Shown in pieces: positions 16,238-50,313 of a stretch of 59,472 nt of DNA. The notes beneath the pieces were generated by a model. That model was not told where the DNA came from. It was given only the letters and a program-made list of their open reading frames with translations, and ran no database searches. Position numbers and translations under genes: made by a program. Location: contig UYFQ01000483.1 of assembly GCA_900617105.1 (NCBI GenBank), forward strand, positions 1 through 59,472. Direction: 5' to 3'. Origin of the DNA: Hydrurus foetidus. Lineage: Eukaryota. The first letter of the stretch is position 1. Each line of letters opens with the position of its first letter.

Positions 16238-16253
16238 GAATCAGTCGCTACCA

Positions 16254-24569: not shown

Positions 24570-24657
24570 GTAAAACCATAAATTGTACTTTCTTTATCTC
24601 TAATGCCACTACTGCGTATTTATTTAAATTCTTTCCGTCTTCTTTATTTTATTTCAG

Positions 24658-25975
24658 TGAATTGAATATGCAGAATGAAAACAGTATTAAAGAGGAAGGG
24701 TTGGTGATTGAAAAAACAATTGAGAATTTAATGTTAATTAATGATGAAAGTATTATCAATTATTGGACATTAGAACAGCCAATGATGATTGAGGAAAACC
24801 TTGAAGAAAAATGTCTTCTGATTGATAAATTTTTTGATTCCATTGCCAATGAAAACAACAAAATTATGGAATCTGGAGCTGAAACTAAAGTTGAACCTGT
24901 ACTTGAAATTGGACCCCCTCAGATTGAAGTGCAACCGGATCATGAACCCAATAATAAATTATCTGAGAATAAAAGAATGAAATTCGTAAATTGGAATATG
25001 GTGTCCCATTTACAGCTGTGGCATAACAAAAACGATGATGCAGTCATTCATTTTCCTTGGGCTAATAGTTCTTGTGCATTGGACTCTACATTAAGCGCTC
25101 TATGGATCATTTATTTGAGAATGCAATCAAACATTGAGAGGCTAAATTTATTCAGAGAAGAGTTTCCAAAAGTCGTTGAAGTTTTTGATCATTTGTATGC
25201 AGGAGAAATTCATAACATTCAGGCTAAGGAAAGATTCATAAAGTTATTCAAGAATAAAGATAAAAGGTACAAGATAAATTCATCCGTGGAATTGAGATTG
25301 ATTACAGATTACTTGAAAAGTAATCTTTCTGCTGTTCATCCTAATGGTGAAGAATCCTTACTTGAATGGGCATACAAATCATATTGGTTATGTGCAACAT
25401 GTGGAGCTAAAACATGCCAGAAATATACTTATGGGCCTGAAAAAGGCGAGGATTTTGTTCACAGGAGAGACAATGTTTTATTCATGATAAGCTCATCTAC
25501 ATTTACAGTGCAAGAATCAATAGAGTCTATTCTATCCGAAAGTACATTAGTCAGAGTTTGTGAAAAATGTATGATACCATGCACTATATTGAGAGAATCA
25601 CTTTCGCATCCTATCATCTTACATCTGAGTTATCCTTATGGAGGCGAAGGTGTAGTAGTAGATGTACCTACTTTTATAGAGGAAATTATTATTGTAGAAG
25701 GAGTTGTTTATGATTTAGTGGGAGTTGTATATGGTGATGGGTTACATTTTTTTTTAAGATTTTTGAAAGACAGTAAAGTATACGAAGCTGATGGGATGCA
25801 ATGTCATTCGACATCTTCATATACAAAAAGAGTTAGAGCAGCATTAAGCAGAGAGCTACCTGGTTGTCACAAACAATCTCTCGCAGGACACATAGATAGG
25901 GAAATAAACGAAGGAAAAGTAATACTAGCTGGCAAAAAAGTTGCAGATATATATTATTTAAAACGTGAGAATTGA
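24658..25975 (+). CDS. USP/peptidase C19-like cysteine protease exon, spliced in frame to the transposase
   Basis: WANSSCALDS (Cys box), CxxC pairs CATC/CEKC, YDLVGVVYGDGLHF and VYEADG (His/Asp boxes); intron 24570-24657. Confidence 0.75.
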
Positions 25976-26611: not shown

Positions 26612-27067
26612 GGCTGTACCATAACGGTGTTTTAGACGGATATTGAGACCTTCTTTCTGTATTCGATCCCCGACCACATCAATAGGTCCTAAAAGTCTAA
26701 GAAACCGTTTTTCGCAACGAATATCACGAGTGCAATACTTTAAAGTACCATTACACGCATCATTATGATGAGATCTACTCAAAAATGCTATTTACATGTA
26801 AACGGTCCCATGCTTTCTGTAAACAGTCCCATGCTTTCTGAAAACGGTCCCATGCTTCCTGTAAACGATCCCCATAATTTTTATTCCCCGTTTTTTTCCA
26901 TCAGAAATTTTCCGTCTTTTTAAAACCGCTCCCCTGCTCTAAATAATACGAAGCAACTATATAACAGTACCATTACCGTACTTATCTCGACGAGAGCTAC
27001 TCAAAAACGATATCTCTTTGTTTTAAGTCCCCGAAATGGGACCGGTTACAGCGAAAAGTCGTCATAT

Positions 27068-27694
27068 CGAGAAATTTACTGGAGACATCGGTCGCAATAT
27101 GGCTGCCTTTATGCGAAGAAAGAAATCCCGTGGAGACGATGTTGAGGAACATCCTCTCATTAGAGGAATAAATAAAGTTGATGAACCAGTATATAAATTC
27201 CGGAGATGGGAAGGTCGTCCACCATATGAAATGTCTTGTTGGGGTCGTATGTTGGTACACCCTAGAACGCAAGATCCTACCGATCGCAAGGGCGGTGTTC
27301 TATTCAGAACACGTTTTCGTGTACCCTTCCCCTTGTATGAGAGGTTGGTAGAAATGACTCGGAATAATGGTTGGTTCAGTGAAAAAAATGATGCTGCGGG
27401 GCAAAAGTGTGCCCCCTTGGAACTGAAGATTCTTGGAGTACTTCGAGTTCTCGGGAGGGGATTCTGCTTCGATGGGATAGAGGAACTCTCTTATATAAGT
27501 GCGGAGGTCAACAGAATATTCTTCCACAAATGGTGCAATCACTTTGCCCACAAATATTTTTCTATCTATTGCAATCCTCCTGAGACACCAGAGGAGATTG
27601 CGAAAACACTGGCTGTATATGATAGACTAGGATTTCCGGGTTGCATTGGTAGTATCGACTATGTCCACATCAAGTGGGAACGTTGTTCATCCGG
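27068..27694 (+). pseudogene. Harbinger copy 2 transposase, N-terminal part
   Basis: Near-identical to copy 1 up to WERCSSG. Confidence 0.93.
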
Positions 27695-27910
27695 TGTGGT
27701 CGGGAGAGATGCAGGCTTGAGGGGTGATTGATACGGTTCAGAGGAAAGAGGAGCCCAACTTTCGATAACTTGAAATTAATGAGCGTAGCTCAGCAACAAT
27801 TCGACTCCGAAGTGCGTGGGTTATTACTCAATAGTTGGAAGTCGTAACTAAAGTTCGACGAGTAGAGAGAATTAGTGCAGTAGAAATTTCCCGATGGATA
27901 ATAGATCTAT

Positions 27911-28495: not shown

Positions 28496-31400
28496 TCAAA
28501 CCTCATCGGTTGATCCCTCAAGATTCTTGGGAATAAAACGTGACATGTTATTATTCCGCAAGTATACATGGAGTGCATCACAGAGCCGGAGATTCTTCCA
28601 AGGCTCCCATGTATTATGTGAGTTATCATAGTTGAGCCATTTAACATGGAACGACATGGATGTCGGTTTCTTTGAATCACCAGTGTGACTAAGAACTTTC
28701 TCAACGAAATACTCCATGTAATCGCGACGTGCTGTATCAGCAGGTATGCCCAGCGATGGGTCATAATTGAAAATCTTAAGATTCTTCACATGTACACTAT
28801 TGTGCTTGTGTGTAATTAAGTTCGCGAGAACATACTCGGATCCCTCAAGGGAGACAACACGGAAAGGACCTTTCCACTTTGTGTGTAATCGAGTTGGAGG
28901 GTGTTCCTGTTTTACAAGAACATATGACCCTATAGGGAACACTGTCACACCTTGTGTGGACTTTTTGTGTTTGTCATCACATTTCTGAAGAGAACCGATT
29001 GCTGCATCGAGGACCTTGTCCTGTATATCGATGAGATCTGTGATGTATGTTGAATTCGAAGATGTCAACGTTGGTAATAGATGAGGTGTTAAAATACCCC
29101 GATTCAAATCAAGTTTATTGCCGAATAAAATCGAAGCAGGACTTGCATTTGTTCGTCGATTAACTGAACTGTTAATGATACGTTGAACGAATGGTATGCA
29201 TTTAGCATAGTGTTCAAGAGATGGTGTATCAAACACGAGACCGCGTAAGTGTCTATTCACTTCTTTGTTGACCCTTTCTACAATGGCATTCTCTTGTGAG
29301 GAGTAAGCCAAAGTGAGATTATGGGGTGTCCCCGTAAGGTCTAAGAACTCTTTAATGAGATCATTAGCGAATCATATTTGGCGATCCGAATCGACCAAAA
29401 TGAGTCAGTAAGCATTCAGTTGCAGACTGAGCAGTAGCATCCTTACACCAGAACATTTCTGTCCATCTGGAGAAGGTGTAAGTTATGACAAGAATATACC
29501 CTTTATCAGGGAATGGGTCAATATAATCGATATTTAATGTATCGAAAATAGCATGTGTTGAAGTTGAAAAATGAGCAGCGCTGATTTTTTGATCAACTGC
29601 GCTCAATTTCTGACAGCATGGGCAGTTTCGTATGAACGAGCGTACGTGCTGTTTCATATTTTTCCACAAGTGGTTAAGACTAAAGAGTCGAGTGAGGGTA
29701 CGGTCGACACCGTTGTGACCAACAATTGCATTGTGGCACATTTGAATGTAAACATTCTGTTCATCTGTCGGCGGTTTAATAACCGCTAAAGCCGAAACTG
29801 CGGAAGATGATGATGAAGAAGATGATGATGGAGTATCACCCTCGGACCTGATTGTCTTAGGCAGAGCAATTTCGGTAAGGTTTGGACATAACCGTGACAG
29901 AGCATCGGCAAGTTCATTATCTGTCCCTTTGACAAAGTGTACGGTAAAATCAAGTTCTTGCATGGCAATGAACCACCGTGTTACCATTGAGGTAGGGTTT
30001 TGTTTCATATAAGTCAAATTCATATGATCCGTATGAATAGTAAACTTACGGTCTCGAATGAGATAATCGAGTTGTTGGCAACAGAAAAAGATAGCATAAG
30101 CTTCTTTCTGTATTGTCGACCAATTAATTTGTGTTGCCGAGAGAGATTTGCTGATGAAGGCAATTGGTCTCCACACGATGTCGACAATTTGGAATAGTAC
30201 ACCACCGATTCCATAATCGGATGCATCAGTATATAGTCTGATGGGTGAATCATCATTGATGAAGTACATTAAAGGACAACGCGATACCGCGATTTTAGTC
30301 TCATTAAATGCTAAAGTCCCCTCGGGGGTCCAATATATGGGGAACGTTTAAGTGCCGTTGGGTCCACCATCATTTGAAGTTGTTTGACCATGTCCGAATG
30401 AAACGGTACAAATTGACGAAAATAGTTGGCTAAGCCAAGAAATCCACGAAGGGATGTTACTTACTTGAGACTGAATCTGCATTTCTTTGCTTTGAGTCTA
30501 AGATTCTTAAATCGAAATCTTTCAAAAACTCTGCGCAGATTCTTGAGAAACTCTGCTTCGCCCTGGCCATATACGATACAGTCATCGAGATACATCTCGC
30601 AACAGCTGTATATAAGACCGTAAAGGACCGTTGTGGCCATCTGCTCTTGAAAGTAAGAGGGGGCTCGACAAGGGCCAAAAGGCAATCTCGTGAACTGAAA
30701 CACCCCCATGAAACATATAAATGCGGTATAGATTCGGTGGGGTGTGTACAGAGGTGCTTGGTGGTAACCCGCGGTTAAATCCATTACTCCGTAAATATCC
30801 GGTTTTTTATTACCGATCCTCTCAAAGAGGTGTTTGATATTGGGTAGGGGAAAGGAGGCCGGCTCAATGCATTCATTGAGTGCACGATAGTCGATGCAGG
30901 TTCGATACGTATCGGCTGTCTTATTTACCATTACAGGATGACTGTAGTATGCAGCGTTCGACCTCTCGATCACACCATCCTCCAGCATCTCTTCAATTGA
31001 AGTGCGGAGGTAATGTTCCTTTTTAGAGGATTGTGGGCGCACTGGTGTGCGGTTCGATGGAACCTCCCATTTTGCCTAGGCAAATTGATCTCAAACGGTT
31101 TGAGATGTGCAGCTTGCGGGGCTAGCTTATCACTGAAAATATCAGCGAATTCTGAACAGAGAGTACGCAAATCCTTCTGAAGGCTTTCATCTCCCTCAAA
31201 ATGGATTTGTGACAAAAATCATCCGGCCCATTGGGCGGTACATTTCGGCACGTCTTGTCACGCAAGAAAGGTGCGAAAGTGTCAGTCTTGTCATTGTCAA
31301 TCTCGTCAACGGAGAGTGCGACACCGCTTGGCCATACGGCTTCCACGTCATAGTCTGATGTAACAGAGTCCCCAGAGGTATGTGTGAGGGTGGGAATCGA

Positions 31401-32325
31401 GTCACCACCTAGGTGCGGGGTATCACCCGTACGTTTTGCGAGTCTAGTCGTGACACTGCCAGTCGCTCACAACCCACATCACCACATGGACTTTGGGTAG
31501 CTACTCCCTCGGAACCAACCTGGGTAACGCTACACGTGAACGTTGCATGACAACCTGACCCCACGACTTCCTCAGTTAAAGGTGCGTGCAAAATGGCCTT
31601 CTTTGGTTTTGGCTTCGGGCAAAGGCCGTATGGTTCTCTTTTCAAAGCGAGTTTCGTCATTGTGATTCCATTCAACAAGTCATATGTTGGGGTAATCGAC
31701 TCTACCTCTGGTTCTTCGGGTTGGAATCCCTCCGATATCGTACGCCTGGTGTATTTGCTCCAGTGAAGTGGGTCAAGCTTTGTTATCGCTTCCCTTTCTT
31801 CAAATTCGCGCCAAAGAATATCCCTTTTCCTTTTGTTCTTCGCACTGAGCTCAGGAGAGATACCAAAAGCAAAAGGTGTTAATGACATAAAATCATATTT
31901 ATTTACAGTGTTGCGACTTAACAAAAGTTCAATATCTGTATTCCGATTAACTCGCAAGGTTAATGGATTTTGTGACATTCGCCATCATAAGAATGAAATT
32001 GGAGAGTCAAATTAATAATTTCGTTATTTATATAGCAATGGCCATCGAGACCAGAGCAAACAGTTATGGCTTTAGGAGCCTCATAACAGAGATGCATAGC
32101 ATTAAAATTTTGAATCATAATGAAAGAAATAAAATCCTCAGAATAATTGGCGGTGTTCAACACAGCCTTGCCCACCATGCGTCGTACGCTAGTCTGGTTA
32201 TCCGTATCCTTATCCTGTACCGAAACAGTAACGTTTAAGTAATTAGAAGGGAGGATAGACGGGTCATGCAAATATTCATCTTGAATAAGCGTTGGAAGTG
32301 TATCGACATGTGAAATGAACGACAC
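28496..32325 (-). pseudogene. pol: G1 pol: PR, RT, RNase H, integrase, chromodomain (several frameshifts/stops)
   Basis: LNTAN (PR, D>N), MDLTAGYHQ, LPFG, YLDD, TDASDYG, ADALSR, H-H-CPCC, VERVN, WKGPF, VKWLNYDNSHNTWEP. Confidence 0.95.
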
Positions 32326-33781
32326 AACATCCGGTAGGTTTAAAATGTCAGATGAATCAACATCATAATCATTTATACCTTGGTTTTATCCCGCGGAAGC
32401 GGAAGACGAGTTGGGTCCCCCCTGGGGTGGGTTGTATTTACCCCCACGGGGGTTTTTCCCTTGGTAGCCTCTACCAGCACTCTAGTTACCATAACCTTGA
32501 TTTTGGTTACCGCGGTTATTACCTTGGTTCCCTTGGTTACCCTGGTTGTTCTGGTTATTACCTTGGTTACCGCGGTTATTACTTTGGTTCCCTTGGTTGG
32601 GGTTGTTTTGGTTACCCTATCCATGGTTATTCTTTGACTTCTTGTTAGTGAACATCAAGAAGGGAGGGGAACCAGCGGGGTGGTGCCGCTGACGGTTTTC
32701 GTAGCCAGGCAGGATTAACCTTTCCTGCCACATGGCTTCACCGTTGGCTAACCATGCCTGCCCAACAGCTGATTCAGACCATTGAATGGAGTGATCGTTG
32801 TTTGTGTCAGTGTAATATAACACGGGGCATGCGGGAAGCATGTGTGCAGGATTTCCACACGAGCGGCAGACTCGAGGAGCCACTGGGGGTACCTCCAATG
32901 AGGTACGAACCGCTAGGGTGCTTTTGCCGCTAGGTGGATCCACATCGCGAATCGCGAGTGTACTCTCCCTCTTCTGTGATGCACGTAGAGGAGGTACTGC
33001 GGTACTCGGAAACGAGTAGATGAGATCAGGATTACCGTAACTCCTGCTCATTCGAATAGCCTCGCGCGCCGCGGAGACGACAGAGATGACGCGCATCATG
33101 GCGGACTCCCATGTAGGAGGTGATTGTGTGTCGACCCTCTTAGACTCAAAGTGGCCTGATTGGATACGACTGCCACGAGCAAGTCGTCTCTCCAAAATCG
33201 TTATCAACTCCGTCTGTTGGTTGGGAGTGATACGGCGAGTGCGCTCGTAATTGGTTACCAATATTTTGTACGCCATGTACGTGCTCAACTCTTCCTCATC
33301 GGAATTTAATGAGTAATGAAATGGCACCTTAGCGAAAAGTTCCGCTGATTAGTTTCGCAACATAATCAATGTCAAGTAGAGTCTGCCATTCGAACCTCTG
33401 TTCCAGTGTCAGGGCTGAATGAGCGCCGTCTGTCATAATCTTGACGTGGAGCAAGTCAATCGCTTGACGTTGCATGCATTCATTAATGCGTAAGCGAGGC
33501 AGCCGCTGAGCTTGCTCAAAGAAGCTCTCAGCGTCTTGCGGAGTGATGTAATCGCCTTTTAGGACGAATATCTCTCGCTGCATCTGCATAGTCTGTGGAA
33601 ACAGTATAGTCTGTGCCACCGAAGACTGTGAGGTTTGGGTGGCATTTAAAATACCCCCGTCCTCTTCTAGCACTTCCTCTTCCTCAGTGTGAACCACTGG
33701 AGGATGTTCGATGAGGTTACCCTCATCGTCGTAACGAGGATAAGATGCTTCTTCGTCATCTGCCATGGTATATGACTTCAA
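32326..33781 (-). pseudogene. gag: G1 gag with CCHC knuckle and N/Q/G-rich tail
   Basis: CRSCGNPAHMLPAC; frameshift ~33330; in-frame TAG/TAG/TAA inside GNQ repeats. Confidence 0.8.
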
Positions 33782-34340
33782 GACGTTATGAATCCGTCAA
33801 AGTCTAAGCAACGAAGGGATCTCCGCGTCAAAAAAAATTTGCCAGAGCTTCGCCTTGTTAGCTTTGAGGGTACTTTACGCAAGTAACAGCGAATAAGTCG
33901 ATTTCAACCAACTCTTGTTGAGAAAATCTCTTAGGCGTGAAAGCCAATTTTTGAGTGGTGAAAATTTTTGGTGTCCGTAAAGGATGAAGGAAGTAATTCC
34001 CACCAGCCAAAAGAAGTCCTTAGACTAATTTGGTGTCGCTAGCAATGAATCCAATGTTCAAATTGCAAACCGACGAGTTTGAAAGTGTCGAGTGGTGAAG
34101 GCTTTCGCGAATTCAACCAACTACGAACTTTGGAGACACCAATAATGGGTTCCAAGAGGAAAGAGGCTAAGCCCAACTTTCGCTAACTTAAACTAAGTTC
34201 TTGGAGCGTAGCTCAGCAAGAATTTCGACTCCGAAGATGTCGTGAGTAATAATACTCAGTTGTTGGAAGTCGTAACTAAAGTTTCGACGAGTAGAGGGAA
34301 TTAGAGGCAGTAGAAATTTTCCCGAGGATAATAGATCTAT

Positions 34341-34540: not shown

Positions 34541-35461
34541 TGTCAGACCACTTGATTCTATCAAGATATGTCTGTAGTAATATAGTTGCAAATATAGTTT
34601 CAAATATATACATGTACGTTATGCGACACGTATGTACGTACGTAAGTACACATGCAGATATGATAACATGCACACGTACACACGTACTTACACATGTTAG
34701 TGCATACTCATTTATGCATACGTACACACATGTACTTACACATGTACGTACATAGTCAATATGTACGTACGTACGTACGTACGCACGCATGTAGCATAGC
34801 GTACACTTGTATGGTCACGCACACACGTACATACGTACGTGCACATGTTAGTACAAATTATTATATGCATACGTACACACACGTACTTACACATGTATGT
34901 ACATATATAATATGTACGTATGTACGATCGCCAATAGCGTAGTACATAGATGTATAGGCGTACATACGTAAGTACCACTGTACTTACGCATGTACGTTCT
35001 TATACATACACATGCATACGTACTCCTATAATATCGCCATATAGCAGTTAGTACTCACGCATGTACGTTCATATACATATACACGCATACGTACCCCTGT
35101 ACTATCGCCATGTATCAGTTAGTACGAACCCTCTGACCTCACGCAAATGAACGTTCGCCTTTCATGATTCTTCAGTATCGCCAAAACACTTCGTTACTAT
35201 AAGCATTCATGCAACGTTCCTCAAGCACATGCTATGAACAACACATCTCGCTGTGAACTTTGTCTCAAGGTAGTTTCACTGTCATGAACTGTTCTGATAG
35301 CTCTTTTGCGTGGCTATCTGTAAACTCTAATCAGAATTTAATACGTTGTACTTCACAGCTTCGTCTACTCGATAGCTCACTGAATTGAGACAGTAGCCTG
35401 CAGCTGCTTCTCCACCTTCGCTGCGAACGCTAGAAGGTGACATCTTGTATTTAGTCTTACA
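34541..35461 (+). repeat. 5' LTR copia B with alternating purine-pyrimidine U3
   Basis: TGTCAG...CTTACA; homologous to 380-1267. Confidence 0.95.
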
Positions 35462-35548
35462 TGGTAGCGATTGTTTATAGTGATTAAACGATTGCCGTGG
35501 ATTCCAGGATTCTGAATTTCCTTCCTCAACTTTCAGAACCCTGCAATC

Positions 35549-38500
35549 ATGAGTGATAATGGATCTGAAGACGAGTTCGAGCTGTCCAACACAGACTCTC
35601 CGCCGGCTCTTGCCGACCTCCTTCAACATCCGTTCAGAACTCTGATCGAAGCAGCTCAACCCATCTTCACTGGTCGAGTTACAAGATCTAGGACAGGAGC
35701 AATTCCTCCTTTAGAAAATCCAAATAGTGATTTTCTAGACGAGGTGGAATTAGCCCTTCAAAATCAGGAGGTTGTTCCGACACCACCTTTAGCACCTCGG
35801 GCGCGGAATCTCGGAGCCACAGCGACAACTTTATTTTCGGACAATTTGGAGGCTCAGGATGCAGAGACAAGATTTTCCTTCGCCGATGTGGCAAGGCTCA
35901 TCGACATTATGTCTTCTAAGATCCAACAGCCTCCACCGTTGGTCTCCCAACCGAAATCAACAGTTGGATCTGCTTCTATTCCAACTGCTTCAACGCCCAA
36001 GGACTCTTCTACTCTATCGGTGCCCATATCGGAATACCTGGATACCACCTCTGCGCAATCGAAATTCTTCTTTTCGATGCCCAAGTTTTCCAACTCTGGG
36101 AAGGACAACCGCGACAACATGGAAACGTTCATGGTCGCTCTAGGTGAATGTAAACTTCTTACATTAGCCAAAGGCGATCGTGAGTTACCAGTCATTACTG
36201 CTCGGAACCCTGGAGGGTATTCACCTAGGTCACTGGTATTAGCAGAAGAAGGATTGTATGATGTCATCCCAGCCGATGACATCTACAAAAGATTACACGA
36301 TTTGGATCGCTTATTGGTTATTCTCAATATGGTTACTGGGAAAGATCTACATTATTTGATCAAGCGTGTGATTGCCGACAACGATGCGGTCTTATGGTTC
36401 AAGACTATCTACGATCACATCAACGGCACAAAGAACAGCGACATCAGGAAGGCAACGGATCAGCTCCACTCCCTGAAGCTCAAGTCCACACAAACCATTC
36501 AGGAGAATGTGGCAACCATCGAAGAGGCCTTCAGAGTCCTCAAAGTCGCAAGTGGCGTGCCCGTCACTGATGATCAAAAGCTTTATCATCTACAAGAAAA
36601 GCTGGAGCATGATGCAAGATTCAGCGTCTTATCAATCATGGCCTCATCAAAGACGTCAAAGGCATCCTACGACGACACCATCAAATACCTTGTGCTTCTT
36701 GATCCTGCCCCAGCGGTAGCTCACAAGATGGCTTCCCTTACTCCAACCTTGGAGCTGTGCAGACGTCACATCGCTGGCCTATGTACCAACGGTTCCTCAT
36801 GCAAGTATTCACATGCAGCAGCGCCGCCAAACAAGGGAGCACCATCTGACAAGAAGCCCAACAAGAACCCACCTCCTCTCAAGAAAGATCAGAAGACTCC
36901 ACCGAAGTTTCCTTTCAAGAAACCAATCATCGTGTCAGATTCCCATCGGTCACTGGTTGGATATCCCAAAGGAGTTGCAACGGCAAAGAACCCAGCTGGA
37001 TATTCGCTGAACCAACTTACAACCATCAGGACTTTACAATCTGCTGATGTTGACGGCTGGGCAACAATGGCGATGGATCTAGCAACCATATCGATCGGTT
37101 CAATGTTCTTCGCTTTAAAGAACAATCAACGACATCCATTGCAGAGTTCCCAGAGTTCTACCACCTTGAGCCCTTTCCAAGACTTCGTGAGATCAGACGT
37201 CACCTGTTCACAATGCTCAACTCGGTCGAGAAGTATAACAGATTCGCCGGTTCATCTCCCAGCGACTACGATGGATCTCCTACTGATCCTCTCTCCGGAA
37301 TTGTTGTCAGCTTCCAAGACCTGACAGCAGCTGAACCAAGGATGGTACACATCTTGGTGGCATTCACATGGCTTTCAGAGAGCCCAACCATCTCGAGATC
37401 CGTGAAAATCCGAGAAGATGTTCGTACAGCAGACAAACGGCTTATGCGAATGCTCTACAAAATTGGAAACAGGTTCTTGAACGCCGACGTGTTGATTCCA
37501 GACAGGGAGGGTTCCGAAAATTTCAGTTATATGAACTTCAACCCTCTCTCCGACAAATTCTATCATTCCGACGACTATGGGTTTTACCAATCAAACATGA
37601 GAAACGTGGAGAAGTACTTTGTTGCTATCAGATACATCATGGAGCATCCTGACATTCCATGGCGACTTCTACGTATTCTCTCTTTGGCTATTATCTACGA
37701 CTTCATGTCATTCTGCGCGCAACTACTTCGTGATGCAGTGCAAATGCAAGCTGACGAATCCCAGACAAGAGCAAATGTGTTATTCACATTGAATACATAT
37801 CGATCCAACGCACAGTTCTTGGATCAGATAGTCTTCCACGATGCTTTCTCTGCAATCATCAACAACATCAAACCAATGCCTCCAGCACCACAGTCTTATG
37901 CATTGCAGACAAGCCCAATCACGACATCATATTCACGTATGAGTGCCATCAACAGAGAGGACCTGCTTAGTGAGACGACTGACCACACTGAAGAAAATGA
38001 TGATGATAATGATGATGATGATGACGATGAATACAGTGACGATGAATCAGAAGGTGATGACATAGACATGACTCCACCGGGGTCATCATCTGATCATCAC
38101 AGGAGATGCCAAGAAGACCTGACCCGATACAATCACCCATACGTGATGGGTCATAAACGCAGTCTGTGGGCATCAATCCAGACTGATACCAAGCGTCCAG
38201 CACGCAGGAAGATCATCAAAACATCAGATGACAATGAGTTCAAGGAGACACCGGGAACATCCAGCTCAATGCATGCTCCACCAATGCTTCAAGACCCTCC
38301 TCTTGTTACTGATGATATTGTTCCAGCACTTAAGACTGCTGGTGTACCTCGTATGATTGTATCAGTCCCATATACGATCAAGGAGGAAGAGCAGCAAACA
38401 TTGCAGCTGGAGCATCCTCCCATGTCACTCGACTCTCAGCAATCTACACAAGATATTTTGCATCCTCCAATGGCAGATCTGGCAACCCCTGAGCCATATC

Positions 38501-39018
38501 GAATGCGCACTCCGCCAGCCAAATCACCATCAAGAGATTCAGTGTCTGCCACACGTCGTGCAAAAGCAAGAGCACTGGCTGAGAAAAAGAGTCTCAACTT
38601 ACTTACAGTTACAGACAAAGACAGCAAATTCATGTCATTCAAGAAGACAAGTCACAAGACAGTCATTGACAGTGGTGCATCTACATCTGGTACTGGATTG
38701 CGCAGCAGTCTCCGTGACCTTAGACCTACATCATGCAGTGTCTCAGCAGCTTTCGGGGAGACTGCCCAGCCTACTGAGATGGGACTACTCCCACCATTCA
38801 TGCTCAAGACTATTGTCATCGATCAAATGAATGATACTACACTGCTCTCAGTGTCTCAAGCGTGTGCAAAGGGATTTGTGGGCATCTTCACCTCTAAGGA
38901 CTGCAAGTTCTTCAATGCGATAGATGTCATCCCACACTTTCAGACAATTTCAAAGACAGCTCACCCAGTTATGAGTGGCAAGGTAGAGGAAGGCCTCTAC
39001 TTGCTGGACTCCAACTGA
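35549..39018 (+). pseudogene. gag: copia B gag - CCCH - unknown domain - protease (frameshift ~37065), ending at TGA 39016-39018
   Basis: CRRHIAGLCTNGSSCKYSH, NPAGYS, VIDSGAS, TTLLSVSQAC, GKVEEGLY. Confidence 0.88.
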
Positions 39019-39202
39019 GTGCAACCGGCTCAACTCTTGGTCACGAGTGTAAAGGAGCTTTCGATTTACGACCACGTGCATCGCGTACTAGGACACCCTG
39101 GCGAAGAGGGTATGGCCTGGCACCCACAGTACACCATTGGAGCACACTACTCCAACTTGGATGCATCTACACCAAGACCAATATGCGCAGCATGCGTACA
39201 GG
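39019..39202 (+). pseudogene. pol: copia B integrase N-terminal zinc finger (continues at 46969)
   Basis: YDHVHRVLGHPG...CAACVQ|GTMR restored after removing G2. Confidence 0.92.
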
Positions 39203-39528
39203 TGTTACATACGTTGCTTCATATAAATCACACGTACGTACATACACAATACACGTCACTCGTAGCCACTAGTTTTTCAGATCAGTTTTCGGTTTCTGTC
39301 TGTTCGACAACTTCAACTCGAGACATACTCCATCGTAGCTAAACTCACGCTCTTTTCACTCCTAAAGTAACCAAAGTCACTAAAACCCAAGAACCAGTTC
39401 GACTCCTTTCAGTCAACCGACCATCTCGTCTGTTCCAGTTGTTCAGCGAGAGATCTCAGCTTAGCCCAATTGCGAAGCTGATCAACACGTTTCATCTTCA
39501 GTCAAGTCTCTGAAGCCGTGATACAGCA
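39203..39528 (+). repeat. 5' LTR of G2
   Basis: TGTTAC...CAGCA, direct repeat of 46637-46962. Confidence 0.96.
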
Positions 39529-39722
39529 TAAATATATATTTCTCGTTTACACGAAAAACGTCTAAATCTCAGATCCCTCAGTTGATTCAATCCTTGTACG
39601 CCAGCATCGCAGTGATCGCCCTGGCTCAGCGAGATTTTGAATCTCTGAGGTAATTTCAATACGAAACGAATTGTCCCGAAAAATCATTCAAGAAAAACAA
39701 TTCTACAGTTTCTACATCTAAA

Positions 39723-41408
39723 ATGTCTGAAGGAAAAGGAAGCTTCAATCCTAAGAAGGAGGAGCCAAAGAAAGATGAATCCAAGAAGAAAATCGAGGTC
39801 GTTAAAGAAGATCCCGCTACAGATTCCAATTTCGAGCTCAAGCAGATGTTCGCTCAGTTTCTCATCTTAAGCAAAGACAATCAATCGCGCAATACTATCG
39901 ACATTCAAGAGCTGAGAGATGCAATCTTGGAATTGAAGAAAGGAAATTACCTATCTCCAATACTAGAAGAACTTACCGACACTCCTACGCTCAATAGACC
40001 TCGTGGAGGCAGAAGATCTTCTATGTTTTTCGGAATGTCTCAACCACCATCTAGCACCCTAGGACCAACAACAGACACTAAGCCGAACATACAAGTGCTC
40101 CAAGGCGACATCGTCTACGATAAGGAACTCAAAGTTAGTTCACTAGAAGGCCTTCAATATCTGGCCCGGCAACTTCAGCTTCTATCTTCCAAATATCCTG
40201 GTCGCGAGATCAAGATGGCCCACATGGTCTCCTACAACCTGCGCCCACATGTTCTAGCATCGTGGAACTCATATAGATATCGAGAGTCTGTTATCAATGG
40301 CGCTGAGTCAAGTGAAATTATGGTTGAAGATTGGTTATCTCTAACTAACCCTGAAGTTCAAGAGATCCTGGTGGAAGCTGCCCGACCCCGCACAAAAGAA
40401 TTGTACTCCAAGGAAATCGTCATATTCCTTGGTAAAGGAATCCCTCAGACACCTCCAATAAACACCGACAATTTCTCGAGCTCGTTCTATGCCCCACTGA
40501 TGAAGTCACTCAACGACTTGCTCCATCTTTATGACCTGATGTCACCGGAAACTTCAAACCACAGTGCCAATAAATCCAAAATACCAGTACCTGGCTACGG
40601 TACCAGGGACAGTCCTGGCCAAATCGCCTTATGGCTTATATCCCTAGGCGCTCAAAAAGAAGCTGTACTTCAATGGCTAGGCAAGGATGAACTTATCAAG
40701 CACAAAACTATTGAAACAGCAGTCAAATTCATTCGATCTCGACTAATGGAAGGTCGGGCCCAAAGCGAAGCTCGTCAAGACTTCGACGCAAAACTCACCC
40801 CTATCCGTTATGAAGACCTTCGACACACCCAAGGCGAATCCCACACCCGCCTGCAGACATCCGCGGCAGGTCGTCCACCTTTCGTGACTCCTCGCAGACA
40901 TGAGCACCGTCCACATCTGTCATCTCTCGTAACGTCCGCTCAACCACCGTCATACGCAATCGACAACGAACACAATGATGATGACACTCCAGATGACGAA
41001 ATCGATACTGATGCCTCAAGCATTCATGATGATATACATCATGACGACGATACCCTACTCGCTATCAACTCAGACATTAATCGTTCCCGATCAGCTGTCA
41101 GCGACACCTATCGTGGATATTGCAGCGAACTATTCGTCTACGGCAAATGCTCACGCCAACATTCTGGTTGCACATTTGATCACTCAGCTGCCGGTCAAGA
41201 GCGCTGCATCCAATCATTCTCCCTCCTGACCAAACGAGAGTTACAGCAGCATGCGCAGCTAGAGCCCTGGTCAAAACAGAAACAAGAATCTACAAACGCA
41301 AATAAATCCGCAAACACATACGGTTCCAAGCATGTTGGCTCTCCACATAGCTCTGGATCTGTCCGGCCCTATGTACCGTCAACTTTGACTCGGCCATATC
41401 AGAAATGA
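39723..41408 (+). CDS. gag: G2 Gag-like protein, 561 aa, with CCCH-type finger
   Basis: First ORF after the LTR; CSELFVYGKCSRQHSGCTFDH. Confidence 0.8.
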   Translation: MSEGKGSFNPKKEEPKKDESKKKIEVVKEDPATDSNFELKQMFAQFLILSKDNQSRNTIDIQELRDAILELKKGNYLSPILEELTDTPTLNRPRGGRRSSMFFGMSQPPSSTLGPTTDTKPNIQVLQGDIVYDKELKVSSLEGLQYLARQLQLLSSKYPGREIKMAHMVSYNLRPHVLASWNSYRYRESVINGAESSEIMVEDWLSLTNPEVQEILVEAARPRTKELYSKEIVIFLGKGIPQTPPINTDNFSSSFYAPLMKSLNDLLHLYDLMSPETSNHSANKSKIPVPGYGTRDSPGQIALWLISLGAQKEAVLQWLGKDELIKHKTIETAVKFIRSRLMEGRAQSEARQDFDAKLTPIRYEDLRHTQGESHTRLQTSAAGRPPFVTPRRHEHRPHLSSLVTSAQPPSYAIDNEHNDDDTPDDEIDTDASSIHDDIHHDDDTLLAINSDINRSRSAVSDTYRGYCSELFVYGKCSRQHSGCTFDHSAAGQERCIQSFSLLTKRELQQHAQLEPWSKQKQESTNANKSANTYGSKHVGSPHSSGSVRPYVPSTLTRPYQK

Positions 41409-44400
41409 GATTTTGCGAGGCCTTCGTTAGCTCACATGCACATCGAAGATCACCTCGCCGACCCTCATGACTACCCACTACAAAGTGTCTTCGACCCTGA
41501 CAACATCTTAACAGAAGCCTTGCTCAGTCAGTTGGCAACCGCTACATCCACCTCGTCGCAACTGCTGTGCCAACCCTTCATTCGTTCCGGTACCGTTGTT
41601 ACTAATACCAACCCAATTCTCTTCAGTCGTGGTCTACTTGATACGGGCGCTCAAGGCAGTAACTTCATCTCCCGTCAATTGTATGAAAGATTACCATCGT
41701 CTATAACTGACCTCAGCCGCTCAATTGACCGTGTTGTCCGTCTCGGCGATGCTCGCTCTTTATCAATTCAGTTGGAAGTTCCTCTCACACTTGGAATTCT
41801 CGATTCCACTAAGAATCTCCATCAACACACACTCTGGTATAGTGTCCTCGACGTTCTCAGCCATGACATCATCATTGGCTTGGTCGATCTAATTGGACCT
41901 TTTACGAGCTTTTTGCTGATGCTGTCACAACGTCTCGTCACTTATCTATCACGTCTGGACTTGGGACGCACTTAGTAGACCTCACTGCTGCCGTTCAAAC
42001 ACTTCACAGTGACCGAAATCCTCACGATATAGTTCGAGCAACCCATTCGCTACAACGGCAAACTGCTACCTATCTCGACCGAAAATCTCGAATGTGCAAT
42101 AGTACAAACACTCACATTCAGCTTCTTGCTCTCCAAGACGGCTCCATTACTGATGTTCTCAATCATCCTCGCCTTGGCTACGTCTATGCTGATGATCGTG
42201 TTGAAACTAGGTATGATGCTTTGACCGCACTGCTCTGTTCACCCAGTCCTGGTGACATCATTCAACCTTGGTCAAAGCCTATTGATTCCTTGGCTCCTGA
42301 GGAACTTGAGACTCCTGACCCAACGAGCTTCCCCGATGATATCCTCAATTATCTCACGACATCACTAGATGAAGCTCGCGCCATCTACATTGCCGACCTT
42401 GAGACACATGTTACTCCCGCTATGCGCACCGCTTGCCCAGCCATCATAGAACTATTACAATCCGACCTAGCATACGACGTATTTGTCCCAAGAACATGGA
42501 AAGGTATTGACATGCCTCCGGTACACCTTAGTGTCAAACCCGGCATGCCTGATTATCTCAAGGCTAGACCTCGCCCAATTCGAGAGGCTTTATTCCAAGA
42601 TGCTAAAACAGAATTTGACCGCATGCAATCATACTTCTATGTAAAATCTACATCTCCAATTGCTTGCCCGCTCGTCATCGCACCCAAAGCTACTGCTCCC
42701 TACATACGATTCTGTGGAGACTATCGTGAAATTAATCCCTTCATCGAAATACCTCAAGAACCCATTCCACATGTCCAACAGTCCTTAGCAAAGGCTGCCG
42801 GTTGGAAAATATTTGTTGACTTAGACATGACCAACTCATTCCATCAAATTCCCATCGACGAATTCAGTTCCAATCTCCTCTCTGTGTCTACCCCCTGGGG
42901 ACTCTTCCGACCTAAGTTTCTCCCAGAAGGTGTTGGACCTGCGTCTGGAATTCTTCAGTCCATCGTCCGTCGCATTTTTGCTGATTTCGAAGCCTGGATT
43001 ATAGTAATCTTTGACAATTTTCTTGTGCTGGCCTCTGATTACCAAGATGCTATTACAAAGCTCAAACTAGTACTTCATCGCTGCCAGATCAATGGCCTTA
43101 TCCTTAAAATGAAGAAGTCATGGATCGGCACCGACGTCGTTACCTTCTTTGGTTATGAAGTTCATCCCGGATCATGGCAACTCTCCGACACTCGCAAAGC
43201 GGCTATATCCTCCATGATCTTTCCTACCACGCAAAAACAAATGCAGAGTTTCTTAGGAGCTGCAAATTTTTTCCATACACATATCCCCAACTTTGCTTCC
43301 TGGGCGTCGGCGCTATACGAATGCACTGTCTCTGGCTTCAACTGGGATCCCTCAACATGGAAGACAGACTACAAGAAACTCTTTGACCTCTTCAAGACAG
43401 CAATCACACAGTCTGTCACCTTGCACTTTCCCGACTACACTCTGCCTTGGGTCGTCCGCTCTGACTCCTCCGACCATGCAGTAGGCGCAGTTCTTTTTCA
43501 GGAATTCACCGACTCCAACGGAGCTATCATACATCAGCCGATAGCATTTGCATCCCACAAATACTCAGGCGCTGCCATCAATTGGGACACCTTCAAACAA
43601 GAAGCTTACGCATTGTACTTTTCAATCATTCAGTTTGGCTACTACCTACGCGGTAAACCATTCCTCCTTGAAACAGATCACCGTAACCTCGTCTGGATTG
43701 AAAGCAGTCAGGTCCCCATTGTCGTTCGCTGGCGTGTCCTCCTCCAGAGCTATATTTTCGAAGTTCGACACATTCCAGGAAAAGACAATACCGTAGCTGA
43801 CTGGCTCTCACGCATGTACCCCATACATACTGCATCACCCTCTCTCTCTGCGATCTCAACTCCTACCACCATCACTGACATGTTTAACGCTGTACATGGT
43901 GGTCGCTCCCTCCATCATGGTGCCAAGCGGACGTACTTAGCTCTCTGTCGACGTTTCCCTGGCCATGGCATTCCTCTCAGAGTAGTCCAGGATCTTGTCA
44001 CTGAGTGTCCTCTATGCCAAAAGGATCGACTTCCAATACAAACCATCGAACACAACGAAGTCCGTGAAACATTATTTCACCACCCACGATCTATCGGTAT
44101 AGATCATGTCACTATCACTCCACCGGATGAAGACGGATACATTGGTCTACTACTTGTTGTTGAACTTGATACGAAGTTTCCTCAAGCCTACCCCATCCGA
44201 GATTACACAGCGTATACTGCTGCCACTGTTCTCTTCAAACACTATTGCACATTTGGTACCTACGACTCCCTCTACTCAGACCCTGGCAGTGCCTTCACTG
44301 CTACTGTCCTCGAACATCTCAACCATTGGATCGGTATCCCTCATCATGTTTCCCTCGTTGGCCGACACGAATCCAACGGCACTGAACACGTTAATGGACT

Positions 44401-45169
44401 CTTCCTGGGTCACCTTCGCAGACTTGTCCATGATGAACGATTCACCACCAGATGGGCTTCTGATACAGTCCTACCTCTCATCAACCATGCAATGATGACA
44501 CTGCCCAACACTGAAATTGGCGGTCTCTCGCCTGCTGAACTCAAATTTGGCACTCAAGATTATGCCCGATTCCAGCTGCCACCTCCACTATCACCGGGTC
44601 ACACCTACAGTGATCTCGTAATTGCCCTCGACCGTAACCTTGCCATCGTCCGATCAATCACCTCTGAGTACCAAAACTCACTCCGTCAGCGCCGCCAGTG
44701 TGCTATGCCATCCGATTCCCACAATGTCTTCCAACCCGGTGACCACATCCTCTGGAACCCGTTAGAAACACCCCAATCGTTCCGCTCCAGCAAACTGTCT
44801 CCAAAACTCCTTGGTCCATATGAAGTAATTCAACAAATCAAGAACGATATTAGTTGCCGACATGTTGTGACAAACATCGTTTCCAAACTTCATGCAAGTC
44901 GAGTTACTCCTTACTTCGGCTCCCCTGCAACTGCGTACACTACAGCTCTCCTTGACCGTGATGAATACATCATCGATTTGATTGTCACTCACCGAGGCAA
45001 TCCAAAGAAAGTGTCCACACTCGAATTCCTTGTTCGCTGGCAAAATTACTCCGCAATCCATGACACCTGGGAACCATGGATGGAAATGAAAAACACATCA
45101 GCAGTTCACCTATACCTAAAAACAAATAACATGAAACACATAATACCAAAACAATTCACAAAAGACTAA
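41409..45169 (+). CDS. pol: G2 pol (PR-RT-RH-IN-chromodomain), one 1-nt frameshift in a T-run at ~41900
   Basis: LLDTGA, DLDMTNSFHQ, IFDN, SDSSD, ADWLSR, HHG..CPLC, LLGPY, VRWQNYSAIHDTWEP. Confidence 0.93.
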
Positions 45170-45341
45170 CCTGCAACTTTCCGACTTTACACACTGCTTA
45201 ACTCATGTTTAACCCCTGATTTATGTTGTGACTTGTTTAGTCCGGTATCACGTGGGGCCTCAGGTATATACCACACCCTTCATTTTACCATTCTGACAAA
45301 TCACAAGGGTGTTACCCCGACAATCAATAATTTTTTTAATC

Positions 45342-46220
45342 TTATAATTCATACAATGCAAACTCATAACATAAACACAAATCCTCCATGCGATCAACCA
45401 TGTTATGAGCAGTATATTTCTTCATGCCATATGTACACCCATTGTCCACAATCATCGTCGCATCCGGATTCTCTTCCACTCTAATGCCTATCGCGTGATC
45501 AATTGTTTTCAGTCCAAGTGCATATTTTCCCCATTCCTCCACGACTTGTGCTTCCGTCAATGTGTTCAAATGCTGCATCCATTTCTTGTGCTTATCAGTT
45601 GCCCATCTCGTCTTCCCCAAAATCACAAACTTCTTTCCTGCCTTATTCAAAACAGTTTTCTTCAAACTATTAACATCCCAACCCAACCCAGACTTCATAT
45701 TCATCCCCGTCCTCTTCCACGTGAACTTGACATCCTTTCCTCTTGCCTGATTATTCTCAACAATTCTCCACAAAACCTTCAGTACCTCATGACTATTCAC
45801 CCCTTTCAACAGAGTTCTCCCCTGTCCTCCTATAACTGATATGATTAAGTCCCTTGGATCTATACTCCCACCACATGTTAAAAGTTCTTTTCCTACAGCA
45901 TCTAATACGTTAAACACCGCGAACATCATGCACTGATTCTCTGTCTTTGGCCACAGCACAATATTCTCTTTCTCAATAACATCCCTAATTGCTTGTGCTC
46001 TTGCATTCGCTTCTGCCTTCGCTTTTGCCTTCACTTCTGCTTTCGCTTTCGCTATTGCTATTGCGACCCTCTTCTCCTCCGCTTTCGCTATCGCTCCTGG
46101 TGTTGCATCTGCTATCGCTTTCGCCAATGCTTTCGCCACTAACTTCAATGCTGCTTTCGCTGCTTTTGCCTCTGGAGTTGCAACAGCCCTTCCCATTGTC
46201 GCTCCGTAATCTGCTATCAA
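45342..46220 (-). CDS. Antisense accessory ORF in G2: papain-fold cysteine protease with A/K-rich N-terminus
   Basis: Intact 292 aa; ENQCMMFAVFNVL, DHAIGI, IVDNG give Cys-His-Asp order; homolog at 2318-3541. Confidence 0.78.
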   Translation of the reverse strand: MIADYGATMGRAVATPEAKAAKAALKLVAKALAKAIADATPGAIAKAEEKRVAIAIAKAKAEVKAKAKAEANARAQAIRDVIEKENIVLWPKTENQCMMFAVFNVLDAVGKELLTCGGSIDPRDLIISVIGGQGRTLLKGVNSHEVLKVLWRIVENNQARGKDVKFTWKRTGMNMKSGLGWDVNSLKKTVLNKAGKKFVILGKTRWATDKHKKWMQHLNTLTEAQVVEEWGKYALGLKTIDHAIGIRVEENPDATMIVDNGCTYGMKKYTAHNMVDRMEDLCLCYEFALYEL

Positions 46221-46636
46221 TATCTCACTATATCAAATGCCAATGTCAACTCTATACTCAATCTGTTCTATATTCACTCTTGTATGTATGAAATTGTGAA
46301 TCTCTGATTGATTTGATCAATGTATATATCGCTCAAACTGTCAGTTCGTTTTTGTTTTTGTATATTTTCGATCAGTACACGTCACCAAGAAAAATAAAAA
46401 AATGACGTCGTTGACGGTTTCAACTGACGCCGCGTTCCAGTAGTCTGGTGGGAAGTCTTTCGCTCAAGACGCTTGAGGCCGCGTGTCCGATTCCACTTAA
46501 ATGCCTAATAATTTCCTAATCACTTCATTCAGCTTTTATAGCGATACCTTGTACTTGACGAACTCACTGAGATGTAGTTAATGCATTGTATTTATTTATT
46601 GTCAACTATAATATATTTAAACCGAAAGGGGGGTGG

Positions 46637-46962
46637 TGTTACATACGTTGCTTCATATAAATCACACGTACGTACATACACAATACACGTCACTCGTAGC
46701 CACTAGTTTTTCAGATCAGTTTTCGGTTTCTGTCTGTTCGACAACTTCAACTCGAGACATACTCCATCGTAGCTAAACTCACGCTCTTTTCACTCCTAAA
46801 GTAACCAAAGTCACTAAAACCCAAGAACCAGTTCGACTCCTTTCAGTCAACCGACCATCTCGTCTGTTCCAGTTGTTCAGCGAGAGATCTCAGCTTAGCC
46901 CAATTGCGAAGCTGATCAACACGTTTCATCTTCAGTCAAGTCTCTGAAGCCGTGATACAGCA
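46637..46962 (+). repeat. 3' LTR of G2
   Basis: Direct repeat of 39203-39528, preceded by PPT. Confidence 0.96.
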
Positions 46963-46968
46963 TACAGG

Positions 46969-49797
46969 GCACGATGCGACGGACCTCTACGGACCATCTT
47001 CGTATACACCGTTTGCCATCTCCTTGCTACGGCAGTCAATTCTCACTTGACGCGTATACACATACACATCGGTCACAGGCCGGTTATAAGTACTGCGATA
47101 TCATCACGGACTTATCTACAAGACGCAGTTATCCATGCTTCACGAAAGACCGGGGAGCTGCAGAACTTGTCAAAAGCTTCTCCACCCTCTTCCAATCACA
47201 TCCTGAGTGGAAGCCCTTGCTTCCAGGCGTAGACCGATTCATCAGAGCCGATGCAGAGAAATCTTATCGGTCAGCTGAATAACTTCAATGCCTTCACAAC
47301 TTCGGATATCGACTTGAGCCAACACCACCTCGCGACAAACATGCAAATGGAATCGCAGAACGTGCAGTAGGCGTCTTATCGATGAAGTGCAACATCACCA
47401 TGCAACCTTCAGGGATGTCAGTACCACAGAAGTTCTGGGATCTTGCCTTTGAGTATACATGCATCACCCATGCATTCAATTACCATTCAGCAATCAAGAC
47501 ATCACCGTATCATCTCATCACTGGAAAGCATGTAATCCTCAAGAACCTCAAGGCCTTTTGGAGCTTATGTTGGGTTCACATCGCGCTTGAAGATAGGAAA
47601 GGAAAAATCGGTTTTCCTCGTGCATACAAAGCCAGATTCGTTGGTTACGATTTATCGAGAACGCTCGAGCCTTGTTTTAAGGTCATCGAAATACTACCAA
47701 CCGGAATCTTCGGCAAAATTAGGACAAGTAAGGACGTCATTTTCGACAAAGACAATAATTATAATTACACGGACGAGTACCCATCCGATCTTGACTTTTC
47801 TAATTTACACCAGAATATCAATAACGATATCTCTGCAGTCCTACCAGCTAACAAGGTAGTTGAAAAAGATTCTGAACAACAACTAGCAACTCCAGCTATT
47901 CCAATACACCCTGTACATGTAATACCTTGCACTATTCAGAATCGAACTCCTGAAAATCCTATTCCAGCGAAAATACATCCAAATGTCATTAACAATAACA
48001 AAATTGTTAATAAATCTGGATCGACTAATATCAAATCAACAAAACAGAATATACCGTTTGATCCAACACCAATTAGAGATACAAATAACAAATCCGACAT
48101 CGATGATAATGACATTGGTATTAATACACCAATTCAAAACATTGAAAATGACGATGCTGTTTACTGGTACTCTACTCATGTTAGAAATCACGAACATTTT
48201 CTCTCATTGATTGAAGCAAGTCATCACGAAAAACTCTTCATCAATTTCGATCAACTCAATGTGCCAAAATCATTCTGGAAAGCTATGGCTATACCTGAAT
48301 GGAAAAACGCAATAGATACTGAATTAAAGAAATTCGAGAAGAACTCATGTTTACATGTAGTACCATATATTGACCAACACCTGGTACCAATGATGTGGCT
48401 TTTTGGTATAAAAACCGACGGTACGAAAAATGCCCGTTTAGTGGGACGGGGAGATATGATGATACCACTCGTGGACTTCGACCCCGACGCCGTATACTGC
48501 GGAAATGTATCATCGTGTTCCATCAAAGTGGCACTAAGCATTGCAGCAGCATATGGACTAGTAATGAAAGGAGGTGACCTCATTGGTGCTTACCTCATTA
48601 CAAGAGCAAATGTTAACTTCCCGGTGCACATAAAGACACCGCAGGGATACACTTGCCCACCCGGTTTCTGCTTTCAGGCTGTCGGCAATCTTTATGGATT
48701 CCCACCTGCAGGGCAAAACTTTTCCATAGAGTTCGATATTTGTATCTTCGAGTGTGGTTACAAGAACACACCCTGGGACCTCAAGTTCTTCTTTAAATGG
48801 ACCACAGATGGTAGACCCATGCTTATCATCGCTCACAGTGATGACTTCAGATGGTTTGGTCCTTCGGACAAACTTGATGAATGGGATCTGATTATCGCCA
48901 CCTTCAATGCACACAAGTATGAAGTCACTGATGCAACTGACAAGGAGTTCGTTGGTATTCGTATTCAGCGTGATGAAGATGGCACATATTATATGGATCA
49001 ACATCGCATGATTGATTCAATAATAAAAGAGGCTAATATATCTGGTGCGAAGGACATGCACTTACCATACCCGACTGGGGACCAAGAACCTGCATTGTCA
49101 AAACTAGACAACGCTTCTACCCCTGAGGAACGTATGCAGTGTATGAAGTACCCGTACAGGAGGGTCGTGGGTCAACTAATGTACGGTATGGTACATACCA
49201 TGGTCGGCATTCTGTATGCACTCAATGTACTATCCCGCTATGGTAACAACCCAGGTCCCAGACATATTAAATTCCTCAAACACTTATTGCAGTACTGCAA
49301 GTACGCACGAAGTGATCGACTAGTGTTCCATGGACACGATGGACCCAGAGACATCGAGACTATGACAACGCTACTTCAACTCCGGTTTCAATGCGATGCA
49401 GATTTGGGTGGTAATCCCGACAATAGCCACTCCCAGACTGCATACCTTGGATACCTCGGCCGTAACCTTATCTGCTGGTGTTCCACCGACCAAGGCAGCA
49501 TATCAACATCAACGGCAGAGTCGGAAATCAAGGCTGTCAACCATACACTCAAAGCAGAGGTCATAGCCAACAGAGGCATCCTAAACATGATGGGATGGGT
49601 CCAAGGTCCAACCTCTACTGAAGAAGACAACCAAGCCTGTATATACCATTCTAAGGCAGCACACATGACACGCAAGCTAAGGCACCTCGACCTCACCGAA
49701 AACTGGGTCAAAGAGAAGGTTGCTGATGGTACTTGCGTAGTTGTTAAAGTTAAATCGTGCGATAATAATTCAGATATTGGTACAAACAGAGTTTCTC
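46969..49797 (+). pseudogene. pol: copia B integrase core-RT-RNase H (in-frame TAA at 47280; cut by copia C)
   Basis: FSLDAY, RADAEKSY, NGIAER, AHSDDF, CDADLGG, STAESE. Confidence 0.95.
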
Positions 49798-50313
49798 TGT
49801 CGGTATATAACAGCGATAAGTGCTAGTTATAGCTGTATATTACCATTTGTATAATCAACAATTAGCATGATAGGATATCACAAGTAAACACACTTTGTAG
49901 ATTGTTATTGGTGTGCAATGTGCACCAAGTCGCTTCCTCAATGCCAATTCGTATCACGTATATTGCCATTGTTACACCATAATAACCACAGCTGTATAGT
50001 ATTTATCCGGTACTTGGTACCAAAAGTCTAGCTTTTAGTACAAACGTCATATTTACAGTTGAGTAGCTACTATCTCGCCTATACAACAACGTAGATGCAA
50101 ATCTACGAGAGCCAGTCAAATTGCATGCGCATGACGATTGAGATCTTATTATTGTACGGCAGGTAGAAATGATGTGCAACATGATTTTATGCTTTGTGGC
50201 CTCCGTGCCAGTTTCTAATTCTTAAATCGAATTTACTAACCAAACCTCTCAACCTTCGTTTGGCCATTTGCAATATGTCCTCCCGACCTCGTGCCATCCC
50301 ATGGCAACTCACA
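49798..50313 (+). repeat. 5' LTR of copia C (single copy in window)
   Basis: TG...CA bounded by host junction and PBS. Confidence 0.85.

Follow-up and report, generated by a model that had tools for sequence, protein, structure and literature searches.

The stretch of DNA analysed here, a 59,472-nucleotide window of the Hydrurus foetidus genome (contig UYFQ01000483.1), is as a whole a nest of transposable elements and includes three Ty1/copia copies with long terminal repeats (LTRs), termed A, B and C. Element A occupies positions 7920–16712 of the minus strand and has an LTR pair that is 99.6% identical; element B starts at 34541 on the plus strand, its integrase split by a gypsy element (39201–46964); and element C, also on the plus strand (about 50327–56522), is truncated. 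In each copy, the interval between the CCCH zinc finger of Gag and the protease holds a segment, here termed domain X, located at 37177–37884 in B (plus strand, about 235 aa), 13700–14381 in A (minus strand) and 52449–53240 in C (plus strand).

A sequence-only reading of the window had described X as an ordered conserved segment of about 180 aa common to the three copies, and had proposed their mutual alignment as a check. The three segments, each open in a single frame at the coordinates first noted, give pairwise local alignment scores of 128, 89 and 122, where shuffled sequences average about 31 (z of 19, 11.5 and 18, with none of 2000 shuffles reaching any observed score), which confirms the common segment; judged by its sequence, X is homologous across A, B and C. 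The motifs F-x-W, A-x4-P, G-(H/F)-Y-x-S and (V/I)(Y/F)DF(M/V)(S/A)(Y/F) occur in all three copies as first written, whereas B reads M-L-Y-K-I-G at a motif from which A lacks the IG, and the better register of the F-N-P motif in A is F-R-P. The most conserved residues lie in B at 37369 (W), 37483 (A), 37537 (F), 37543 (P), 37579 (G), 37585 (Y), 37591 (S), 37699 (D), 37702 (F) and 37768 (R). The size had been underestimated, as X starts about 50 residues earlier with a long helix and a strand.

BLASTP of the open reading frames (ORFs) confines the sequence shared across the finger–protease interval to X and the start of the spacer. The acidic, Pro/Ser/Thr-rich linker downstream of X (37948–38589 in B, plus strand) is of low complexity, varies in length and gave no alignment among A, B and C in this comparison, in keeping with the proposal that the flanks of X are unrelated; the upstream spacer departs from that proposal, with a conserved G-x-P-x-G...N-P-x-G-Y-S-x-x-Q motif after the finger (36956–37015 in B, plus strand) and an F-N-(M/V)-L-like motif. 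The former is assigned to Gag and not to X because elements that lack X, described below, keep it. In A, the linker between X and the protease contains 30-bp tandem repeats (12703–12965) coding S-A-S-A-A-P-like units, the number of which varies among relatives.

The structure of X predicted from 98 sequences (pLDDT 93.4, pTM 0.91) comprises a long helix, a two-stranded hairpin, ordered loops and a four-helix C-terminal bundle, the long loops being unusually ordered (pLDDT 94–98 over residues 101–160). No family match and no clear fold match was found among the libraries and solved structures searched, a set that lay outside Repbase, REXdb, GyDB, HHpred and AlphaFold DB. A match to a UBN2-type Gag domain, named beforehand as the result that would speak against novelty, was seen for X in 0/14 and 0/98 members (PF14223-type, UBN2 or Retrotran_gag_2), the weak PF14223 signal sitting upstream in the capsid region; hhalign gave a probability of 0.1% for X against the element’s own capsid. 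Set against these searches is the reading that a described retroelement or host domain family includes X as a remote member that the libraries miss, which is hardly probable: CDD under-represents Gag and protease domains, as stated in the relevant part of Neumann et al. (PMC6317226), even the capsid and protease of these elements fall below Pfam cut-offs, and the five resources just listed could hold such a relative.

Selection on X was assessed from variants among sister copies in the interval 37330–37870. When read in the X frame, 26 of the 28 variants, counted as sites in assembled contigs of paralogous copies rather than as independent events, are synonymous, against 30% expected for the same kinds of change (p 7e-12); the other two frames give 3/28 and 5/28. 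The crude pN/pS of X is 0.03, so that the comparison between copies proposed at the outset returns purifying selection. Across 18 families, X distances track those of the capsid (Spearman 0.66) and the protease (0.56), a level reached in 0 of 1000 permutations for each, with mean identities of 24% for X, 36% for the capsid and 49% for the protease. A quick-search X tree gives the same sub-groups as the Gag-plus-protease tree. X is under purifying selection, is inherited together with Gag and protease, and diverges faster than the capsid. It is almost certainly a real folded domain and constitutes a new protein family, and its fold, as modelled, is probably new; purifying selection, the confident model and the lack of a family match or clear fold match together support the original proposal of a lineage-specific folded domain of no described family.

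An X profile built from 14 sequences and searched against 1.84 billion proteins matched 164 clusters (50% identity) at E<=0.001. Among the 150 hits listed, 21 have a copia context (X adjoined by capsid, finger, spacer motif or protease), 116 lack the length needed to judge, 10 show linker-like flanks only and 3 fail a refined profile; no other domain context for X appears in that list. A protease-anchored search, which samples this lineage only because its query was built from X-bearing families, gave 53 clusters, 16 of them spanning finger to protease and 14 of these 16 with X. Half or more of the words sampled from B are present in 18 of the 24 public runs listed, which are labelled as metagenomes from biofilm, sediment, freshwater, glacier and air and as two coded organisms; about 33,000 and 28,000 short contigs align on B in two runs, as expected for a high-copy repeat. 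From the analysis alone, the host was guessed to be a cold-water microeukaryote, for instance a chrysophyte or diatom. The freshwater copia family with X is widespread, and no description of the domain or of its copia lineage was found in the open literature.

The conserved set of X is mostly aromatic, Gly and Pro, joined by S (91/95), D (83/88) and R (75/78), and none of its His, Cys, Glu or Lys residues reaches 55% conservation. Net charge ranges from -11 to +2 in the 18 families. Because conserved His, Cys, Glu and Lys are absent and the charge is low, X is disfavoured as an enzyme or a general nucleic-acid binder. An enzyme or ligand-binding cargo of new fold, carried in the manner of dUTPase and aiding reverse transcription or protecting RNA, is accordingly an unlikely identity for X: the near-invariant polar S, D and R and the ordered loops with their conserved aromatics would suit it, and dUTPase-like cargo between protease and reverse transcriptase (RT) is described in LTR elements (in the relevant section of PMC6431247), but no enzyme occurs among the structural neighbours listed, and the Asp and Arg, on neighbouring helices, would be equally compatible with a structural salt bridge.

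The elements that carry X are otherwise of copia type. The order protease–integrase–RT–RNase H is present in P0006 and in an intact relative of 2009 aa (P0177), and RVT_2-type RT is recognised above cut-off in A, B and C (PF07727, E 9e-14 to 8e-17); the window copies also have LTRs and a primer-binding-site-like motif. The 5' LTR of B (TG...CA; 34541–35461, plus strand), at whose first position sister copies have loose ends, matches at 89% that of a second copy of the B family (380–1267), which also retains an RNase H end (2–186, 94% identical to B). The primer-binding-site-like sequence TGGTAGCGA follows directly after the upstream LTR end at 16251–16259 (A, minus strand), 35462–35470 (B) and about 50310–50320 (C). 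The Gag capsid-like region of B (36041–36733, plus strand) matches Retrotran_gag_2 weakly (E 0.025, below the curated cut-off) and aligns across 20 relatives. The CCHC knuckle C-x2-C-x4-H-x4-C, frequent though not universal in the Gag of copia elements, is absent from 53/53 proteins examined; its position is taken by a CCCH finger of Pfam zf-CCCH families, at 36758–36814 in B (plus strand), 14765–14821 in A (minus strand) and 52016–52069 in C (plus strand). The aspartic protease region of B (38590–39015, plus strand; D-S-G at 38668) was placed by motif and alignment and gave no Pfam match at E 0.1. The remainder of B pol, with integrase core, SH3-like end, RT and RNase H, resumes after the nested gypsy element (46965–49826, plus strand). 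RT regions lie at 9477–11408 (A, minus strand), 47283–49826 (B) and 52179–56522 (C). The usual catalytic motif of RT is Y-x-D-D; A, B, C and both relatives that reach it (P0177 and P0294) have H-S-D-D-F-R-W-F-G, and the upstream RT motif is G-G-D-L-x-G-A-Y-L.

The protease and integrase of B are separated by an in-frame TGA (39016–39018, plus strand), five codons after G-L-Y, and A has a TGA at the same position (12161–12163, minus strand); the integrase of B begins in frame with the stop with an HHCC zinc finger (39019–39200, plus strand). Among the 53 protease-bearing clusters, 34 end at the stop residue, 12 continue towards the integrase and 7 break elsewhere, the identity of the codon as TGA being read in A and B only. 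On the tree, a branch with support 100/99 has the 16 stop-bearing rows all on one side, which points to a single gain, on a root that is only a midpoint. In P0268, closely related to a stop-bearing family, Arg occupies the stop position and the frame continues colinearly. Downstream of the stop, an in-frame Met first occurs beyond the two His of the integrase zinc finger. This makes readthrough more plausible than reinitiation, and the integrase, RT and RNase H of the clade of A and B would be made by putative readthrough. No description of a readthrough stop in this post-protease position was found. In C, the frame runs from X through protease and integrase to RT with no stop, so that X either predates the stop or is unconnected with it. 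The claim of a conserved stop therefore stands for A and B and fails for C, and the claim that X is made at Gag levels stands for the clade of A and B only, as C and several relatives have X in an unbroken Gag-Pol frame.

Each of the three copies has a frame break in the stretch from CCCH finger to X, at three differing places. In B the break (37054–37080, plus strand) coincides with 19 bases of sister copies missing at about 37065, and relatives of A and B encode Gag, CCCH finger, X, linker and protease in one ORF of about 1000–1340 aa; the ORF is intact across finger and X in P0017, P0095 and P0271, and P0177 is an intact Gag-Pol that includes X and lacks the stop. Since the sisters carry the 19 extra bases and the relatives are intact, the breaks are read as decay or assembly error and not as recoding, and a programmed frameshift at the B break was rejected. 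The protease end of A (12161–12260, minus strand) contains an extra stop (12246–12248) and soon after it a frame change, despite the 99.6% LTR identity. Some Gag-X proteins, C-like or more distant (P0123/P0022, P0011/P0124, P0170 and P0174), terminate within the linker and do not reach the protease, and in two cases a pair of cluster members shares the end residue; these may represent a second Gag-X/Pol split, or decay or contig ends.

The window also contains other mobile elements. The gypsy element inside the B integrase has a chromodomain and 330-bp terminal repeats that are 100% identical; its Gag also contains a CCCH-like finger (PF25586, E 0.0024), so that copia and gypsy elements of the same host may share the use of such fingers. 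Two more gypsy copies with chromodomain lie at 28496–33796 and 57621–59470 (minus strand). DDE transposase pieces (Plant_tran, DDE_Tnp_4) occur at 20375–22125, 27064–27696 and 56411–57195, and one of them truncates element C. Long ORFs in 18165–20414 and 23608–25975 have no Pfam match above cut-off; the ORF at 18963–20414 contains 63- and 93-bp repeats, and 23608–24573 has a weak DUF7869 match (E 5e-5).

Domain X is missing from 10 of the 75 proteins that span CCCH finger to protease. These belong to two sister families (901–903 aa and 710 aa) that are 91% identical to each other and nested in the clade of B with support 100/99, and both keep ORF1 and the stop. In the longer family, almost exactly the predicted fold has been dropped in frame, with both flanking motifs, the linker, the protease and the stop retained; its capsid is 70–76% identical to that of X-bearing relatives, and its members occur on several contigs of 6–22 kb from two sources. 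The limits of X, both ends of which in B agree with this natural loss, are thereby set independently of the model. The loss suggests that an element can do without X in cis, where X is probably accessory and not essential. The same lineage also weakens the case for a structural role that is strictly essential. The corresponding alternative gives X a structural place in the virus-like particle, as an inner scaffold, spacer or Gag assembly domain that no particle can lack, with X-less elements co-assembling with the X-bearing Gag of relatives; this alternative is rather unlikely. It draws on the position of X in the Gag-level ORF1 of the stop-bearing clade, its retention in 14/16 spanning clusters, the strong purifying selection and its inheritance with the capsid; X is, on the other side, unlike the element’s own capsid, diverges faster than it, lies C-terminal of the RNA-binding finger, and has been lost by a lineage with an intact ORF1.

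Similar hydrophobic-Asn/Ala-hydrophobic motifs recur at the capsid/finger, finger/X, X/linker and linker/protease junctions. The motifs, picked out visually as degenerate patterns with no null control, occur before the finger in 20/23 proteins, before X in 21/23 and after X in only 11/21 X-bearing ones. In B, the candidate cleavage motifs are R-F-N-V-L-R on the N-terminal side of X (37096–37113, plus strand) and Y-S-R-M-S-A on the C-terminal side (37930–37947, plus strand). Cutting by the element’s protease at these junctions would free X as a protein of roughly 30 kDa. ORF1 of the clade of A and B (Gag, CCCH finger, X and protease) ends at the stop, and X would there be made at capsid level; in C-type elements it would be one part of a single Gag-Pol frame.

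X is selected, fast-diverging, uncharged, apparently non-catalytic and droppable by one lineage, which fits an accessory, trans-acting binder of a host factor. We tentatively favour the reading that X is an accessory, non-catalytic protein freed by the protease that binds a host factor, most likely a restricting one, at somewhat short of an even chance; binding of a host factor without catalysis, taken by itself, is about equally tentative, and counter-defence in particular is doubtful, if the likeliest class of target. X would act in trans, and X-less elements would use the X of their relatives. Steering of insertion, by contrast, is the least likely of the three roles first suggested for X, since X lies far upstream of the integrase and between protease-site-like motifs. 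A tether that fixes the pre-integration complex on chromatin or on a protein of the host, comparable to the chromodomain found in chromoviruses and CoDi-I elements, would accord with the dense nest of insertions in the window and with the shared frame of X and integrase in C-type elements, but is very unlikely: the chromodomains described in the relevant part of PMC5348765 adjoin the integrase, and X is separated from it by the linker, the protease, the candidate cleavage motifs and, in most families, the stop.

Several points weigh against an accessory host-factor binder made as outlined above. The tree shows a single loss of X, and the X-less elements, whose pol genes are not readable, may be non-autonomous. 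In all other families X persists despite deep divergence, as it also would if it had an essential function that can be provided in trans. The conserved S, D and R are possible active-site residues. The non-independence of the variant sites and the manner in which the cleavage motifs were chosen count on the same side, as does the result that no significant RNA structure lies 3' of the stop (z -1.2 to +0.5). No partner, host or function of X was observed.

The canonical order of Ty1/copia elements (Pseudoviridae) is GAG-PROT-INT-RT-RH, as given in PMC6317226. The X lineage has the same domain order, LTRs, primer-binding-site-like motif, RVT_2-type RT and SH3-like integrase end, and differs in its CCCH in place of CCHC finger, in the 475–750 residues between finger and protease that hold a folded domain, in the H-S-D-D of its RT and, in one clade, in the in-frame stop between protease and integrase. 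In the portion of the same survey of 5410 plant copia elements that treats added polyprotein domains (aRH and chromodomains), these are named for gypsy lineages only. Extra domains between the Gag zinc finger and the protease are rare, with precedent, in the account of PMC6431247 that bears on them, in the giant planarian Burro elements, which contain known domains in frame between Gag zinc knuckles and protease. Burro elements are gypsy-like and their cargo (MATH, ubiquitin-like, BCL-2 and Env) belongs to known families, whereas X matches no family searched and persists throughout a copia lineage.

As a host-binding region that precedes the protease, the Gag extension of Sireviruses is the closest functional parallel: SIRE reportedly interacts with dynein light chain 8 of the host by way of a lengthened Gag C-terminus, a finding ascribed to Havecker and colleagues in 2005. 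SIRE is a plant lineage whose extension is said to bind by short motifs, in contrast to the predicted globular domain X. Sirevirus gag-pol junctions are discussed in part of PMC5009743. Tca2 of Candida albicans, described as gag-UGA-pol in the pertinent text of PMC2194720, likewise has copia enzymes in frame behind a single stop, which in Tca2 must be bypassed; the Tca2 stop splits gag from pol, whereas the present stop follows the protease, so that Gag, X and protease share ORF1. The plant elements Bianca and Ogre likewise have two ORFs, the first GAG or GAG-PROT and the second the remaining domains, with the Ogre split following PROT (from the section on these elements in PMC6317226). Their ORFs are 172–274 bp apart on average (an intron in Ogre), in contrast to the single codon here, where stop-less relatives have a colinear frame. 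CoDi-I diatom elements and chromoviruses are, on the portions of PMC2806351 and PMC5348765 that cover them, stramenopile elements of copia or gypsy type that carry an extra domain, CoDi elements having CCHC fingers or a chromodomain; that chromodomain is a known fold beside the integrase, and CoDi Gag fingers, where detected, are CCHC.

Copia polyproteins are commonly regarded as nearly fixed in content. X adds to them a new protein family, probably with a new fold, that is selected, vertically inherited, without clear structural neighbour and spread over well more than 100 divergent clusters. In our view the family is real and undescribed, belongs to a divergent copia lineage and is likely accessory, its function being inferred. 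A fuller scenario is speculative and rather unlikely in its entirety: X, as a new fold, would mark an undescribed and diverse copia clade of freshwater microeukaryotes (CCCH finger, H-S-D-D RT), and, once released from Gag, would serve a counter-defence in trans that X-less cheaters borrow and whose dose is raised in most of the clade by the post-protease readthrough stop. The stop, as a putative recoding site in an unusual place, is a further point open to test, and the X-less lineage beside its X-bearing sisters makes the accessory role of the domain and its action in trans testable by comparison of natural families.
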